A DNA stretch of 64,000 nucleotides from Escherichia coli (GTDB lineage: Bacteria > Pseudomonadota > Gammaproteobacteria > Enterobacterales > Enterobacteriaceae): the NCBI RefSeq assembly GCF_030384885.1, contig NZ_CP128613.1; one strand, written 5' to 3'. Positions within the stretch are counted from its first letter, which is position 1, and each line of letters opens with the position of its first letter. The notes beneath the pieces are model-generated. The model was not told where the DNA came from. It saw only the letters and a list, made by a program, of their open reading frames with translations, and did not search any database. Made by a program: the position numbers and the translations under genes. This document shows positions 2,936 to 46,045 of this stretch, piece after piece.

Positions 2936-4351
2936 TTATTTCAGCCCCAGGGCGGCTTTCATGGTGTAGAAGAGATCGGTCTGGTCGGTCAGTCCAACGA
3001 CATTGGCGGCATGTGGGCCATACGCCGCAATACGCAGCTGACTACCGGTATGTTCTTGTGAATCCTCTTCGGAGTTCCCGTAACTCATCACCATCACTGC
3101 GCCATCTTTGGTATTTAGCGCCTGGGTGAGGCCCGGCGCTTTGGTGTCCGGCGCGACAATCTGGCTGGCGTGGGCGTGATCAGCGGTGACTATGACCAGC
3201 GTGTTGCCATCCTTTTTAGCGAATTCCAGCGCCCGTTGTACGGCTTCGTCGAGATCGACCGTCTCGCCAATTTGCCCACAAGGATTCGCCGCGTGATCCT
3301 GTTTATCGATTGATGCACCTTCAACTTGCAGGAAAAAGCCTTTCTCATTTTTACTCAACAATTCAATGGCTTTATCAGTCATCTGCGCCAGGGTCGGTAC
3401 GCTGTCATTACGTTGCGGATTAGGCGTACAGGTAACTGCGGGCTTGTCGATATTGCCGTGGTACGTTGCTTTCGGTCCTTGCCAGCGCACTGGCATATTG
3501 CCGTCAGCAAACAGTCCTAGCAGGGGTTTTTGCTGGTTCGCTTCCGTCACCGCATTCAGTGAGGCAGCATCGCTCACCAACTGATAACCACGCGCCTGCG
3601 CCTGTTCACGCAGCGTTTTTCCCTGCCATTCACCGGCGGTTGCCGTTTCCGCAAAGGTTTTTGCGCCGCCGCCAAGCGTAACATCGGCACGGGCGTTAAG
3701 CAGCTGTTCGGTAATCGATCCTTTTCCGCCTTTTTCCAGCGCGTTACCCGGACATTTTTCACTGGTCGCGCTCGGACCGTAGCATTTGCGCGAAGTCACA
3801 TGCGCCACCAACGCGGCGGGAGTGGCATCCTGCAACTCTGCGGTAGAAACGTTACCGGTCGCCAGCCCTGCGGCTTTTGCCATTTCCAGAATCGTTGGGT
3901 GATCTTTTTCATGAATATCGACACCCAATGCGCCGTTATAGGTTTTGACACCGGTTGACCAGGCAGTTGCTGATGCAGCCGAGTCGGTAACGTAGTCCGG
4001 TTTGCCGGTTTTTTTATTCAGCGCATAGTGAGTGTATTGCCCGGTAAGCGGTAAGGCATCAATACCTTTAAAAAAGCCGCCCGCACCTTCGGCATAATTA
4101 CGTGCGGCAGTAATTTCCGAATCCCCCATCCCATCGCCAATCAGCAAAATAATATTTTTTGCAGGCTTATCGCTAAGAGAATCACGCAGAGCGGCGCTCT
4201 GATCACCCGTTAAGCGGCGAGCACCGCCGGGTGCAGTAATATCGCCCTGAGCAGCCCGGTTTTCCAGAATAGGCATTTCTGGTGTCCGGGCTTTTGTCAC
4301 AGGGGTAAACAGTAACGGTAAGAGTGCCAGTGCAATAGTGCTTTGTTTCAC
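2936..4351 (-). CDS. phoA: Alkaline phosphatase
   Basis: ORF 2936-4393; GTG start giving [21 protein letters not shown] signal peptide at 4351; 471 aa; matches PhoA from memory. Confidence 0.95.
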
Positions 4352-4410
4352 TTTATTTTCTCCATGTACAAATACATTAAAAAATAAAAACAAAGCGACT
4401 ATAAGTCTCA

Positions 4411-4430
4411 GCCGTGACAGCTTTATGACA
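4411..4430 (-). promoter_or_regulatory. Pho box (PhoB binding site) of the phoA promoter
   Basis: Minus strand reads CTGTCATAAAGCTGTCACGG, two direct CTGTCA repeats, about 60 bp upstream of the phoA start. Confidence 0.7.
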
Positions 4431-4451
4431 GCTGTTGAAAAGATTACCTTT

Positions 4452-4712
4452 TTACTGACGAGGATGCTTCAATAACTTCTTTACATAATCGCGCAGCAGC
4501 TCCGTATCGTCGTCAGGAATGCTGGCATCGGGCTTTACCTCGTAAAGTGCCCCCTCAACCTGATCAATCAACCGCTGTTGGTCATTTTGCGCCATATTAC
4601 GAAGCATTGCAGTGACGATAATCTCCAGTGCTTCTACCTGCGCGCACAGTTCTTTCGACTCTTCTTCTTTTTGGGCAAGCTTAAATAACAACTCAGCAAT
4701 GAGATTTTTCAT
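4452..4712 (-). CDS. iraP: Anti-adaptor protein IraP (RpoS stabiliser)
   Basis: 86 aa [33 protein letters not shown]...; matches IraP/YaiB from memory. Confidence 0.9.
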
Positions 4713-5174
4713 GTCTGTATTTCCTTATCCAAAGTATGGAGAAGTTAACATTATGCTTCACAACTTCATAGTGTCTGGAGGTAGTATTTTTATGACGAAT
4801 GAAATACTTTGCGCAAATATTTTTTCCATATTTATCAGCGAAACGTTTCTCTTATTTAAATAAGTAACCATACAAAGTATAGGTTTTTAATTATCAACCT
4901 TTATTATAAGTAAAAGTTATGAAATATATTCTCTTTGCTAACTTATAATTAAGAGAAAAAAACTCACTGCATGGCCATTTAAACCAGGAATAAATTAGCT
5001 TCCCGTTCATCATTTTTGTGATCTTGCGCACATCTTTGAGATAACGCACTTTCTTCACCAGTACGTTGCACACTTTGTCAGTAGAAGATTGCAACATTCT
5101 GTCAGAAGGCCGCGAATCCCCCGTTTTGTCGTGGTAATGTATGCACTTTGTGTTAGACGGGATAGGTTTTCAAG

Positions 5175-6269
5175 ATGGAAAAACTGCGGGTAGGAATCGT
5201 TTTTGGTGGTAAATCAGCGGAACATGAAGTGTCTTTGCAATCGGCAAAAAACATTGTCGATGCCATTGATAAAAGTCGCTTCGACGTTGTGCTGCTGGGC
5301 ATTGATAAACAAGGGCAATGGCACGTCAGCGATGCCAACAATTATCTGCTAAATGCAGACGATCCTGCCCATATTGCGTTGCGCCCTTCGGCGACCAGTC
5401 TTGCGCAGGTGCCTGGTAAACATGAGCATCAGCTTATCGACGCACAAAACGGTCAGCCATTGCCGACGGTGGATGTCATTTTCCCGATTGTTCACGGTAC
5501 GCTAGGCGAAGATGGTTCCTTGCAGGGAATGCTGCGGGTCGCCAATTTACCGTTTGTGGGTTCTGATGTTTTGGCGTCAGCGGCCTGTATGGATAAAGAT
5601 GTCACCAAACGTCTGCTACGCGATGCCGGGCTGAACATTGCGCCATTTATTACCCTGACACGCACCAATCGTCAAAACATCAGTTTTGCCGAAGTGAAGT
5701 CAAAACTGGGGTTACCGCTGTTTGTAAAACCCGCTAACCAAGGCTCTTCTGTTGGTGTCAGCAAAGTAACCAGTGAAGAAGAGTACGCAATTGCCGTCGA
5801 TCTGGCGTTCGAGTTCGATCATAAAGTGATCGTTGAGCAAGGGATCAAAGGTCGTGAGATCGAATGCGCGGTTCTGGGCAACGACAATCCGCAAGCCAGT
5901 ACCTGTGGCGAGATCGTACTAACCAGCGATTTCTATGCCTACGACACCAAGTACATTGACGAAGATGGCGCGAAAGTGGTGGTTCCGGCAGCCATTACGC
6001 CTGAAATTAACGATAAGATCCGGGCAATTGCCGTTCAGGCTTATCAAACGTTGGGTTGCGCAGGCATGGCGCGTGTAGACGTGTTTTTAACCCCAGAGAA
6101 CGAAGTGGTAATCAACGAGATCAACACACTGCCAGGCTTCACCAACATCAGTATGTATCCGAAGCTGTGGCAAGCCAGCGGTTTGGGTTACACCGACCTG
6201 ATCACACGTCTGATCGAGTTGGCGCTGGAGCGTCACGCTGCGGATAACGCATTGAAAACCACAATGTAA
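5175..6269 (+). CDS. ddlA: D-alanine--D-alanine ligase A
   Basis: 364 aa [29 protein letters not shown]...; ATP-grasp ligase. Confidence 0.95.
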
Positions 6270-6290
6270 TTTTTAAATGCCCAATAACTG

Positions 6291-6503
6291 TTATTGGGCG
6301 TTTTCAGTTTCTTCATCGCGACGACGAATAATCAGCCCCGCGAGCCAGAAACTAATCACCCACGTCACCAGACCAACGGCATAGGTCTGCCAACCTTTTG
6401 CTTCAAATCCCAGTAACCCCACCACGCCATTAAGAATGAATATCAGGCCAATGGCGAACGCATAGTAGTGCCAGTCACGGCGAATTTTTACAGGCAGACT
6501 CAT
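6291..6503 (-). CDS. yaiZ: Small membrane protein YaiZ
   Basis: ORF 6291-6530; internal start MSLPVKIRRDWHYYAFAIGLIF at 6503; two predicted TM helices; 70 aa. Confidence 0.7.
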   Translation of the reverse strand: MSLPVKIRRDWHYYAFAIGLIFILNGVVGLLGFEAKGWQTYAVGLVTWVISFWLAGLIIRRRDEETENAQ

Positions 6504-6762
6504 GGCAGCTCCGTTAACGAAAAATAACATCTTCGCATAATCGATAACTTACGTCTGTGGGGTAGACAGCATTTCCCGTATCGTTAAAAAATTTAACTTA
6601 AAGTTACCGTTTTGTGACTCGTGACAAATATTCCCGCTTCGGGAATATTCCCAACATCAATTTACCATGATTCTGATATTGACAATCTAAATGACCTGTC
6701 AGACTTGCCATAAGCCGCTGGTATGACACCAGAAGAGAAGTAGATGACTTCCGGAGGTTTTT

Positions 6763-7071
6763 ATGGCTGATTTCACCCTGTCAAAATCGCTGTTTAGCGG
6801 AAAATATCGCAATGCCTCTTCTACGCCTGGCAACATTGCCTATGCGTTGTTTGTGCTGTTTTGCTTTTGGGCTGGGGCGCAATTGCTGAACCTGTTAGTG
6901 CATGCGCCCGGCGTCTATGAGCGTTTAATGCAGGCTCAGGAAACAGGCCGCCCACGGGTGGAAATTGGTTTAGGTGTCGGTACCATTTTCGGGCTGATCC
7001 CATTTTTAATTGGCTGCTTCATTTTTGCAGTGGTGGCGCTATGGCTGCACTGGCGACATCGCCGCCAGTAA
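6763..7071 (+). CDS. yaiY: Inner membrane protein YaiY
   Basis: 102 aa ORF with two hydrophobic segments; conserved position between ddlA/yaiZ and yaiW. Confidence 0.85.
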
Positions 7072-7128
7072 GAGTAGGTTGCCAGATGCGGCCTAAAATG
7101 CCTTATCTGGCCTGGCGTTCCCTCTTGC

Positions 7129-18614: not shown

Positions 18615-19577
18615 TTATTGCACGAAGCGCGAGGTCACGTACTGGCTGTAATCATTCGCCACGGCAGGGACTTTGCCCTGATCTTTCAAAAACTGCGCGG
18701 TATCGATGATCGCTTTATTCACCGGTCCGGTCAGTTCTGCCGTTTGTTGCTGCGGCGTCAGATAGGTATTCCCCTTCACCAGCCCCGGAACGTCACCTTC
18801 CGGCACGCCGCTTAAACGCGCCAGCTTGCTGATGTTTTCCGGCTGTTTCAGCCACGCGTCTGGGTTAGCAATGTACGGTTGCTGAGCATCGATGGCGCTT
18901 TTAGCGAACGCTTTCACGACTTCAGGATGTTTCTCGGCAAAATCTTTGCGCACTACCCAGACGTCCAGTGTCGGCGCGCCCCACTGCCCGACCTGTTCAG
19001 AATCGGTCAGCACCTTGCCATCTTTTTCCAGGGCGTTAACCGCCGGTGCCCAGACATAAGCACCATCAATGTCTTCCCGCTGCCAGGCGGCGATAATCGC
19101 AGGCGGCTGCAGGTTCACAATCTCCACTTGCCCGGGTTTAATGCCCCAGTGTTTCAGCGCCGCCAGCAAGCTGTAATGCGTGGTGGAGATAAACGGTACG
19201 GCAATGCGTTTGCCAATGAGATCTTCGGGTTTGCTGATGGTTTTCTTCACCACCAGCGCTTCGGAGTTACCCAGTTTTGACGCCAGCAAGAAGACCTCAA
19301 TCGGCACCTGTTGGCTGGCTGCAACCGCTAATGGGCTGGAACCGAGGTTGCCGATTTGCACATCGCCAGAAGCCAGTGCCCGCACGATGCTGGCCCCGCT
19401 GTCAAACTTACGCCAGTCCACGGTCGCCCCGCTCTCTTTAGCAAAGGTGTTATCAGCCTGAGCCACTTTCGCCGGTTCAGCGGAGGTTTGATAGGCCACA
19501 GTGACGTTCACCGCCTGTGCCTGAAAAGCGATGAATGCCAGTGCGGCAAGAAGTGTGTTACGCGATGAAATTGCCAT
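18615..19577 (-). CDS. tauA: Taurine ABC transporter periplasmic binding protein
   Basis: 320 aa with signal peptide; first gene of tauABCD. Confidence 0.95.
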   Translation of the reverse strand: MAISSRNTLLAALAFIAFQAQAVNVTVAYQTSAEPAKVAQADNTFAKESGATVDWRKFDSGASIVRALASGDVQIGNLGSSPLAVAASQQVPIEVFLLASKLGNSEALVVKKTISKPEDLIGKRIAVPFISTTHYSLLAALKHWGIKPGQVEIVNLQPPAIIAAWQREDIDGAYVWAPAVNALEKDGKVLTDSEQVGQWGAPTLDVWVVRKDFAEKHPEVVKAFAKSAIDAQQPYIANPDAWLKQPENISKLARLSGVPEGDVPGLVKGNTYLTPQQQTAELTGPVNKAIIDTAQFLKDQGKVPAVANDYSQYVTSRFVQ

Positions 19578-19879
19578 GATTGTCTGCTCCCCTGTCTTGT
19601 TATGGGAGCAGTATTTCGTTGCTGGTCAGTTTGATAAAGGAATTAAAACGTCTTGTTAAGAACAAAGCGTTTTTAGAAAAAAACTGGCAATGGTTAGCGA
19701 GTTTACGCATTTTGCAGCTTGGGCGAATGTAGCATGCCGATTCACAAACCAGATCAGATGTTCGCTCTCCGGCAAATTATTGCCATTTTGTTACATCCAT
19801 TCCATATCTGTCGCTGGTTGATTGCCAGCGACGCGCCGTGATGCATGATAGGAGAATGAGATAATAAGAGAAGAAAAGT

Positions 19880-20509
19880 ATGATTAGGGTTGTGCTGGTG
19901 GATGACCATGTGGTGGTGCGCTCTGGCTTCGCACAATTACTCTCTCTGGAAGACGATCTGGAGGTCATTGGTCAGTACAGTTGTGCCGCGCAGGCATGGT
20001 CGGCATTAACTCATAATGACGTTAATGTTGCCGTCATTGATATCGCCATGCCGGACGAAAATGGCCTCAGTCTGCTTAAGCGTCTGCGTGCACAAAAACC
20101 GCAATTCCGCGCCATTATTCTTAGCATTTATGACACGCCAACCTTTGTACAAAGCGCTCTGGATGCTGGTGCCAGCGGCTATTTGACCAAACGCTGTGGG
20201 CCGGAAGAGTTAGTGCAGGCGGTGCGCTCGGTCGGGATGGGCGGGCATTATCTCTGCGCCGATGCAATTCGGGCTTTACGCGGCGGCGAGCAACCCGCCC
20301 AGGCGCTGGAAATTCTCACCCCACGAGAACGTGAAGTGTTTGATTTATTAGTCAAAGGCGACAGTGTAAAAGAGATCGCCTTTAAGCTCGAACTCAGCCA
20401 TAAAACGGTACATGTACATCGCGCCAACGTGCTGGGAAAACTGAACTGTCATAGCACCATTGAGCTGGTGCATTTTGCACTCAATCACCATCTGCTGGCG
20501 GGGCATTAA
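19880..20509 (+). CDS. NarL/FixJ-family response regulator, UhpA-like
   Basis: 209 aa; receiver domain (VVLVDDH, acceptor Asp in VIDIAMPD) plus LuxR-type HTH; close in architecture to UhpA. Confidence 0.85.
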   Translation: MIRVVLVDDHVVVRSGFAQLLSLEDDLEVIGQYSCAAQAWSALTHNDVNVAVIDIAMPDENGLSLLKRLRAQKPQFRAIILSIYDTPTFVQSALDAGASGYLTKRCGPEELVQAVRSVGMGGHYLCADAIRALRGGEQPAQALEILTPREREVFDLLVKGDSVKEIAFKLELSHKTVHVHRANVLGKLNCHSTIELVHFALNHHLLAGH

Positions 20510-22050: not shown

Positions 22051-22122
22051 CCAGGAAAAAGTCTTAGGCATCCCGGATTTTCTCTCATCCTCTTTCACTT
22101 TCATTTTCATATAGTCAGCAAC

Positions 22123-23439
22123 ATGGAGACGACCATGCACGCGCGTTCAGCGAGAGAGATTAATCAATGCTACCGGACATTACGTCCGCGATTGCTGATG
22201 TGCATGATTATTGGCTACGCCGCATTTTATCTGACGCGAAAAAGCGTGAATTACGTCCTTCCGGCGCTGCAAACCGACCTCGGACTGGATAAAGGCGACA
22301 TTGGCCTGCTGGGTTCGCTGTTTTATCTCAGCTACGGATTGTCGAAATTTACCGCCGGACTGTGGCATGACAGCCACGGACAACGCGGTTTTATGGGCAT
22401 CGGCTTGTTCGCCACTGGGCTATTGAACGTGGTGTTTGCCTTTGGCGAATCACTTACGCTTCTGCTTGTGGTCTGGACACTGAACGGATTTTTTCAAGGC
22501 TGGGGGTGGCCACCGTGTGCCCGCTTACTGACCCATTGGTACTCCCGTAATGAACGTGGTTTCTGGTGGGGCTGCTGGAATATGTCGATCAACATTGGCG
22601 GAGCGATTATTCCGCTGATTAGCGCCTTTGCCGCCCACTGGTGGGGCTGGCAGGCCGCGATGCTGACACCGGGGATTATCAGCATGGCATTAGGGATCTG
22701 GTTAACGCTACAGCTTAAAGGCACACCCCAGGAAGAGGGATTACCGACGGTGGGTCAGTGGCGTCACGATCCGCTGGAATTACGTCAGGAACAACAAAGT
22801 CCGCCGATGGGTCTGTGGCAAATGTTGCGCACCACAATGCTGCAAAATCCGATGATCTGGCTGCTGGGTGTCTCTTATGTACTGGTTTATGTGATCCGGA
22901 TTGCGTTAAACGACTGGGGCAATATCTGGCTGACGGAAAGCCACGGCGTCAACCTACTCAGCGCCAACGCCACGGTAATGCTGTTTGAAGTGGGCGGCTT
23001 ACTCGGCGCGTTATTTGCCGGATGGGGTTCGGATTTGCTGTTTAGCGGGCAGCGAGCCCCCATGATTTTGCTGTTTACCCTTGGGTTGATGGTTTCGGTC
23101 GCTGCACTCTGGTTGGCACCGGTTCATCACTATGCCCTTCTGGCTGTGTGCTTTTTTACTGTGGGCTTTTTTGTCTTTGGCCCGCAAATGCTGATTGGAC
23201 TTGCGGCAGTGGAATGTGGACACAAAGCTGCGGCGGGTTCAATCACCGGATTTCTCGGTCTGTTCGCCTATCTCGGTGCGGCGCTGGCAGGCTGGCCGTT
23301 GTCGCTGGTTATCGAACGCTACGGCTGGTCGGGAATGTTCAGTTTACTCTCGGTCGCCGCAGTACTTATGGGTTTACTGCTGATGCCGTTACTGATGGCG
23401 GGCATCACCACCACTCACGCTCGAAGGATAAAACAATGA
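22123..23439 (+). CDS. MFS organophosphate:phosphate-antiporter-family protein, UhpC-like sensor
   Basis: 438 aa; many matches to UhpC from memory (FYLTRKS, GVSKF, CARLLT.WYSR.ERG, NDWGN, FGPQMLIG). Alternative start at 22135 has a better SD. Confidence 0.8.
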   Translation: METTMHARSAREINQCYRTLRPRLLMCMIIGYAAFYLTRKSVNYVLPALQTDLGLDKGDIGLLGSLFYLSYGLSKFTAGLWHDSHGQRGFMGIGLFATGLLNVVFAFGESLTLLLVVWTLNGFFQGWGWPPCARLLTHWYSRNERGFWWGCWNMSINIGGAIIPLISAFAAHWWGWQAAMLTPGIISMALGIWLTLQLKGTPQEEGLPTVGQWRHDPLELRQEQQSPPMGLWQMLRTTMLQNPMIWLLGVSYVLVYVIRIALNDWGNIWLTESHGVNLLSANATVMLFEVGGLLGALFAGWGSDLLFSGQRAPMILLFTLGLMVSVAALWLAPVHHYALLAVCFFTVGFFVFGPQMLIGLAAVECGHKAAAGSITGFLGLFAYLGAALAGWPLSLVIERYGWSGMFSLLSVAAVLMGLLLMPLLMAGITTTHARRIKQ

Positions 23440-27672: not shown

Positions 27673-27754
27673 AAATAGCACATAAACGGTCCCAACCTGT
27701 CTTGAGAGACCGTTCACCTGTTTAGACGTCGGACAACAATTATTCTCCGGTGTT

Positions 27755-27807
27755 ATATACTATAGGGGGGTATGCATTGACATATGGCATACCCCCCTAT
27801 AGTATAT
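27755..27807. promoter_or_regulatory. FrmR operator: 21-bp inverted repeat with G6/C6 tracts
   Basis: ATATACTATAGGGGGGTATGC - 11 bp - GCATACCCCCCTATAGTATAT, ending 25 bp upstream of the frmR start. Confidence 0.6.
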
Positions 27808-32256: not shown

Positions 32257-32334
32257 AAGATGAACCTCGTTGCGAATGCAGGTGAATCGCGGCTGATACA
32301 TTGCCAGCCGCGTAATCAAAACCATTTAATGACT

Positions 32335-42926: not shown

Positions 42927-42932
42927 GTATGA

Positions 42933-46045
<3,113 letters not shown>

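Follow-up and report, generated by a model that had tools for sequence, protein, structure and literature searches.

The inverted repeat at positions 19810–19832 of the window, the whole 64-kb stretch of Escherichia coli DNA analysed here, is best read as belonging to the core promoter of fusR-fusK, the regulator genes, with a dyad symmetry that most likely lacks any function in its own right. The repeat is real, as it reads exactly GTCGCTGG-TTGATTG-CCAGCGAC, with a left arm (19810–19817) and a right arm (19825–19832) of 8 nt each, 100% complementary to one another, and a loop of 7 nt (TTGATTG; 19818–19824). The original prediction placed it about 50 bp upstream of an UhpA-like regulator gene, and 47 nt do separate its end from the ATG of that gene at 19880. 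It lies within the 302-bp gap between tauA (18615–19577, minus strand) and the regulator gene, and folds at -18.4 kcal/mol (z = -3.9) as single-stranded RNA and at -10.0 kcal/mol (z = -4.0) as single-stranded DNA. In first-order Markov simulations of the window, perfect 8-bp repeats with loops of 3–10 nt number 10.6 ± 3.5 per 64 kb (about 0.05 in a gap of 302 bp), while 27 matches of the same class, making up about 15 distinct hairpins, are observed in the window. As some ten repeats of such a size are expected per 64 kb, the repeat is statistically unremarkable. The pattern GCTGG-N7-CCAGC (at most one mismatch) is found 12 times in the window versus 2.6 times in shuffles, and the words GCTGG and CCAGC are thus common in the genome. 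A related repeat at 32288–32312, which shares ATTGCCAGC, was set aside as unrelated, being located within a coding region.

The regulator gene (19880–20509, plus strand) encodes a response regulator of 209 aa with receiver and GerE domains, an ortholog of FusR (Z0463) that is 96% identical to the O157:H7 protein adjoining tauA. The description of this protein as UhpA-like holds, as it shares 49% identity and the recognition helix with UhpA of K-12; this helix (LSHKTVHVHRAN) does not vary in any of the regulator orthologs, and UhpA has the identical core KTVHVHRAN. The regulator gene is followed rightward by genes for a MASE1 histidine kinase, a UhpC-like MFS protein and AfuABC, and then by frmR. 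The block is O-island 20 (OI-20) of EHEC, which carries fusK/fusR (z0462/z0463), z0461 and afuABC (PMC4546632, PMC6199705, PMC11644481).

The promoter scan places a sigma-70 promoter (P1), which is the main one of the regulator gene, across the repeat, with the -35 hexamer TTGCCA at 19822–19827 and the -10 hexamer CATGAT at 19844–19849 on the plus strand, separated by 16 nt and matching the consensus at 9 of 12 positions. The -10 hexamer (CATCAT in most genera) occupies -12 to -7 of the mapped start. Cappable-seq data of strain EDL933 contain two starts for the regulator, 445955 and 446045, each in 8/8 conditions (PMC10469882, supplementary file 6). EDL933 coordinates were transferred by the relation window = 465811 - EDL933 coordinate, which was verified on the ends of tauA, the regulator gene and the kinase gene, and the start 445955 then falls on 19856, exactly the position predicted from the promoter scan, with a leader of 24 nt. 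With the start of P1 at 19856, the repeat therefore spans -46 to -24, across the -35 element: the left arm lies at -46 to -39, the final three bases (TTG) of the loop open the -35 hexamer, and the right arm (-31 to -24) closes it with its leading CCA.

The conservation of this region was assessed in 77 loci encoding close relatives of the regulator, obtained from a scan of species-representative genomes and belonging to Escherichia, Citrobacter, Klebsiella, Raoultella, Serratia, Enterobacter, Leclercia, Buttiauxella, Cedecea, Xenorhabdus and other genera. Over the stretch that begins about 94 nt and ends 28 nt ahead of the start codon, their upstream regions align without gaps, with the consensus TTtTGtTACat.c.TtaCATAac..c..c.....gaTTGCcagc.c..cg....cagGCATcATag, in which an upstream box, gaTTGCCagc and GGCATcATag are the conserved blocks. 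TTGC of the -35 hexamer and CAT.AT of the -10 hexamer are invariant or nearly so in the 77 orthologs at fixed spacing, which is the conservation looked for in a sigma-70 promoter.

The box (TGTTAC-ATCC-ATTCCA; 19789–19804; consensus TGTTAC-N4-GTWACA) is centred at about -59.5 of P1, and no other non-coding element ahead of the regulator gene is as well conserved across all 77 orthologs and Xenorhabdus. In Buttiauxella, Cedecea and Xenorhabdus it reads as a perfect palindrome (TGTTAC-N4-GTAACA). A matrix built on it finds exactly one site per locus, and a search for a second copy upstream of the uhpC-like and afuA genes yielded none. The box does not resemble an UhpA-type site. Its spacing or key bases presumably also misfit the sites of CRP, GntR, CytR, OmpR and RstA, as those of the repeat presumably misfit a Cra site. 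The FusR footprint at ler includes a half-box (ATGTTAT).

The symmetry of the repeat is not part of this conserved architecture. The columns of the left arm are the least conserved in the 77-ortholog alignment, while CCAGC of the right arm is conserved as part of gaTTGCCagc. In the register of the repeat, the outer four pairs are Watson-Crick in 12–22% of the orthologs and the inner four in 38–62%; over all cells, 35.0% are paired versus 35.2 ± 1.1 in shuffles, and the covariation score is 0.070 versus 0.072 in shuffles, giving no support for compensatory changes among the orthologs. No Rfam family matches above chance, the sole match being a chance hit to a plant microRNA model (23.7 bits against a threshold of 85 bits). 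A conserved hairpin or structured RNA was rejected on these grounds, as neither pairing nor covariation is in excess in the register of the repeat.

Symmetry of variable register around the -35 element was also considered. The mean best complementary run between the -35 flanks is 4.27 within species versus 3.76 ± 0.09 across species, pairs of at least 6 bp are seen in 19% versus 3% (loci L006–L081, alignment A3 columns 17–54), and the within-species complementarity is likewise higher than in shuffled controls. The pairing registers and centres vary by clade, and loci of the Citrobacter freundii group carry a perfect TGCCAGCGC-N-GCGCTGGCA between the -35 and -10 elements. Such symmetry was rejected as a conserved structure, as the registers differ, direct repeats around the -35 element are raised about equally, and relatedness inflates the within-species count of complementarity. 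The complementarity of the -35 flanks may reflect low-complexity G+C-rich sequence or template-switch mutation.

Within E. coli, the 65-bp promoter is present in 510 of 5426 complete genomes, and only 61 of these 510 carriers have the exact repeat, which is thus imperfect in 88% of them. Most perfect-repeat alleles appear to be copies of the block linked to an integrase gene. Window and O157 sequences are 97.9% identical over 19786–19879 and 93.5% identical over the regulator gene, with two differences in the promoter stretch 19786–19879, one of which (19831) falls in the outer stem of the repeat. Position 19831 is A in the window and C in O157:H7 and most other genera, and A19831 is therefore derived. 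The C at this position in O157:H7 and O145:H28 brings the stem down to 6–7 bp (-7.0 kcal/mol as DNA, z = -1.9), and P1 is mapped as active in O157:H7, that is, from an allele without the perfect repeat. The carriers studied best dispense with the symmetry, which is lineage-specific and was perfected recently.

The repeat could thus have arisen on an ordinary promoter as follows. The right arm would be conserved as the -35 region, and the left arm would lie in a freely drifting G+C-rich spacer between the conserved box and the -35 element; the spacer of the E. coli lineage would have become complementary to the -35 flank by happenstance, and the derived C-to-A change at 19831 would have turned a 6-bp match into the perfect 8-bp repeat in a minority of alleles. 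Selection could also explain this last change.

Among the alternatives, an operator survives best, although it is unlikely. In this reading a repressor dimer, be it FusR on a weak UhpA-type dyad or some host factor, would bind across the -35 element, occlude P1 and block elongation from the second start, thereby (auto)regulating the regulator genes. Repressor operators classically occupy such a location, across a mapped promoter (-46 to -24) and downstream of a second start; the CTGG-N7-CCAG core has the geometry of the UhpA dyads in the uhpT promoters and in the uhpT-like promoter of the island, and the recognition helix of the regulator is that of UhpA in all orthologs. FusKR is also reported to repress z0461, and QseB and QseF to repress fusKR (PMC6199705, PMC5120142). 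UhpA-type sites were re-derived from the uhpT promoters of K-12, Enterobacter kobei, a metagenomic relative and Plesiomonas as a strong site S (CTARGA-N5-TCYNGG) and a weak site W (CCTGGA-N6-CTCAGG), the dyads of which centre at -64.5 and -41.5 of uhpT, respectively, with the CAP site at -103.5 as reference (PMC5352689).

The repeat agrees with CCTGGA-N5-TCCAGG at 8 of 12 positions, four of which are supplied by the conserved -35 element alone, and does not qualify as an UhpA-type dyad. Its left half-site position is the best one for this pattern, at least 8/12 being reached in 26 of 75 orthologs versus 0–1 elsewhere, and a likeness to CCTGRR is seen at the left-arm hexamer in 16 of 77 orthologs, and at no other position as often; however, only these 26 of 75 orthologs reach 8/12 although the recognition helix is invariant. 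A matrix of conserved UhpA-type half-sites scores the repeat at -9.4, compared with 17.8 for the S dyad of uhpT and 19.8 for the S dyad of a pair at 22051–22090 of the window, and ranks it 4957th among 127965 window positions, 3.9% of all positions scoring as well. Thus an UhpA-type site at the repeat, promising by its identical helix and CTGG-N7-CCAG core, was rejected as background. The invariant outer C and inner A are missing from both halves, the centre lies at -35 of P1 instead of about -64 (S) or -41.5 (W), no strong UhpA-type site for cooperative binding is found next to it, and nothing similar occurs in the published FusR footprint at ler. With a left arm that is not conserved, a symmetry broken in most natural carriers and a score at background, the operator for autoregulation put forward in the original prediction is unlikely, although some protein may bind the repeat. 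That the repeat is a genuine low-affinity operator, covering the -35 element of P1 and blocking transcripts from the second start, is doubtful, a step less likely than the operator reading as a whole. If it were one, natural alleles would differ in the autoregulation of the FusKR/Uhp-like system, the site being perfect in the integrase-linked copies and the strain of the window and broken in O157:H7 and O145:H28.

Judged by its sequence, a much better candidate for the target of the regulator is the strong and conserved UhpA-type pair in front of the uhpC-like gene. The 72 bp that separate this gene from the kinase gene contain an S dyad (CCAGGA-AAAAG-TCTTAG; 22051–22067), a W-like dyad (CCCGGA-TTTTCT-CTCATC; 22073–22090) and a -10 hexamer (TATAGT; 22110–22115), all three almost invariant in 65 distinct orthologs and spaced as in uhpT. 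The start of the uhpC-like gene in EDL933 (443688) corresponds to 22123, and the dyads are therefore centred at -64 and -41.5, as in uhpT. These sites suggest that the uhpC-like/afuABC operon is activated by a FusR-type regulator in the way that uhpT is by UhpA. Such activation would sit uneasily with the reported repression of z0461 by FusKR. The uhpC-like gene is annotated to start with an ATG at 22123, the very position of the mapped 5' end of the mRNA, and most orthologs lack this ATG, while a second ATG at 22135, preceded by GGAG (22125–22128), is the conserved start; in the integrase-linked copies, the uhpC-like gene is annotated 12 nt shorter.

A role of the repeat in RNA is less probable again than an operator. 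The second regulator start (P2; EDL933 446045, 8/8 conditions) corresponds to 19766 on the plus strand and gives a leader of 114 nt that contains the repeat at +45 to +67, where a hairpin might act on the long fusR mRNA by way of pausing, stability or translation. The repeat is thus transcribed in EDL933, and it forms the tip of a longer predicted stem of the leader (-38.6 kcal/mol, z = -2.1 for the allele of the window). However, the O157 leader, from which the start was mapped, folds no better than shuffles (z = +0.76), the orthologs and Rfam give no covariation or family match, and the P2 segment (19716–19785) is E. coli-specific and hypervariable there, being 82.9% identical between window and O157 with flanks of 96–98%. 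The stem is that of a Rho-independent terminator in being G+C-rich, 8 bp long and of -18.4 kcal/mol as RNA, but it has no U-tract and so does not make an intrinsic terminator; this candidate was rejected, as no T-run follows on either strand (plus, GCGCCGTG; minus, AGATATGG) and the repeat is absent from the terminator scan. Many P2 transcripts may in addition stop before the repeat, at a terminator-like hairpin at 19771–19784. This small hairpin (GGCAA-ATTA-TTGCC, followed by ATTTTGTT) occupies +6 to +19 of the P2 transcript, and several other genera also have GGCAAATTATTGC conserved ahead of the box. The start base of P2 is G in O157 and T in the window, and its presumed -10 hexamer is TAAGAT in O157 and TCAGAT in the window; the strength of P2 may therefore differ between strains.

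It is more improbable still that the symmetry reflects back-to-back divergent promoters, with the left arm serving a leftward -35-like hexamer (GCGACA; reverse complement of 19809–19814) and the right arm the -35 element of P1. A minus-strand start of EDL933 (446033) does correspond to 19778, with CAAAAT (reverse complement of 19785–19790) at the -10 position and GCGACA 18 nt upstream of it, both hexamers being read by eye. This start, however, is found in only 1/8 conditions, the -35 hexamer matches at 4/6 positions with a spacer of 18 nt, the two -35 elements are asymmetric about the dyad centre, and tauA transcription of the K-12 type starts 27 nt from its ATG. The tauA-direction start at 19778 lies 201 nt upstream of tauA and inside accessory DNA, the leader listed for K-12 being 27 nt. 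Two further inverted repeats occur in the tauA-proximal part of the gap: one at 19645–19673 (AAAACGTCTTGTT/AACAAAGCGTTTT, 13 nt, 85%), in DNA common to empty-site strains, and one at 19584–19611 (CTGCTCCC-N12-GGGAGCAG), just upstream of the tauA start and reaching into sequence shared with K-12.

The repeat belongs to the accessory block and not to the conserved DNA upstream of tauA, and its position in the promoter region of the regulator stands as first described. All 302 bp of the gap recur in 450 of the 5426 complete E. coli genomes. In strain E302 the site is empty (tauA-305 bp-frmR), and alignment with E302 and K-12 sets the left junction of the accessory block against the empty tauA-frmR site at 19715/19716, where the homology of E302 to the left side of the window ends; K-12 carries a different insert, near-identity with it ending at about 19615. 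In PF9285, ST69 and 7-58 72A, the block lies beside a tyrosine integrase gene next to ulaE, and homology to the window begins at 19786. These integrase-linked copies at the second site are represented by positions 3631–5094 of locus L005 and 5612–7075 of loci L084 and L085. Occurrence of the repeat in strains lacking the block, which would speak against a link with the regulator, was not seen, as it is absent from K-12 and from the empty-site strain and moves with the block.

The boundary hairpin at the junction of core and accessory DNA, the other proposal of the original prediction, is ruled out, since the repeat is set back into the block by 95 bp from the core/accessory junction (19715/19716) and by 24 bp from the homology break of the second context and travels with the block, and orthologs of other genera retain the promoter without the repeat. 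That it is an attachment site, a recombination hairpin or the remnant of a mobile-element end is scarcely credible: mobility of the block is plain (about 450 genomes have it at the tauA-frmR site and about 60 at the integrase/ulaE site), but the break at 19786 falls at the conserved box, no second copy of the repeat occurs at the other end of the block (right junction) or elsewhere in the genome, and orthologs with unrelated flanks keep the promoter and not the repeat. A loose similarity (CCGG.AAAT.ATT...TGTTA) is shared by both block ends (19760–19795 and 27730–27765) and the empty site (L003, 4215–4250), and could be the trace of a recombination core, although the pieces misfit a simple attL/attR scheme.

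The repeat itself is of little consequence, being a lineage-specific symmetry in an ordinary sigma-70 promoter. The two mapped starts of fusR-fusK, a virulence-linked two-component system of EHEC, are now placed on a promoter architecture conserved across Enterobacterales, and a conserved upstream box is identified as a candidate protein-binding element. The predicted UhpA-type target site of the regulator lies in front of the uhpC-like/afuABC transporter genes and not of its own gene.

In comparison with known systems, the repeat shares with Rho-independent terminators and attenuators a G+C-rich 8-bp stem, a short loop and transcription from P2, but differs in having no U-run on either strand, in not lying at a gene end and in showing no covariation. 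REP/BIME and other dispersed palindromic elements are likewise G+C-rich intergenic palindromes, while a 31-mer spanning the repeat occurs at one place per genome in 61 genomes and carries no REP consensus; the repeat is therefore not dispersed and does not belong to the REP, BIME or MITE elements. True REP sequences are located upstream of the promoter in some Citrobacter orthologs. Like the UhpA S and W dyads of the uhpT promoter, the repeat, with its CTGG-N7-CCAG core, is a dyad upstream of a gene of a Uhp-like system, but its half-site ends differ (GCTGGT/GCCAGC versus CYWRGA/TCYWRG), it is centred at -35 rather than at -64.5 or -41.5, and it is not conserved in the orthologs. Although its sequence is unconserved, its symmetry is broken in most natural alleles and it is a putative operator only, the repeat resembles promoter-overlapping repressor operators such as lac O1 (42931–42955 of the window) in being a short dyad placed over a core promoter and downstream of a second start.
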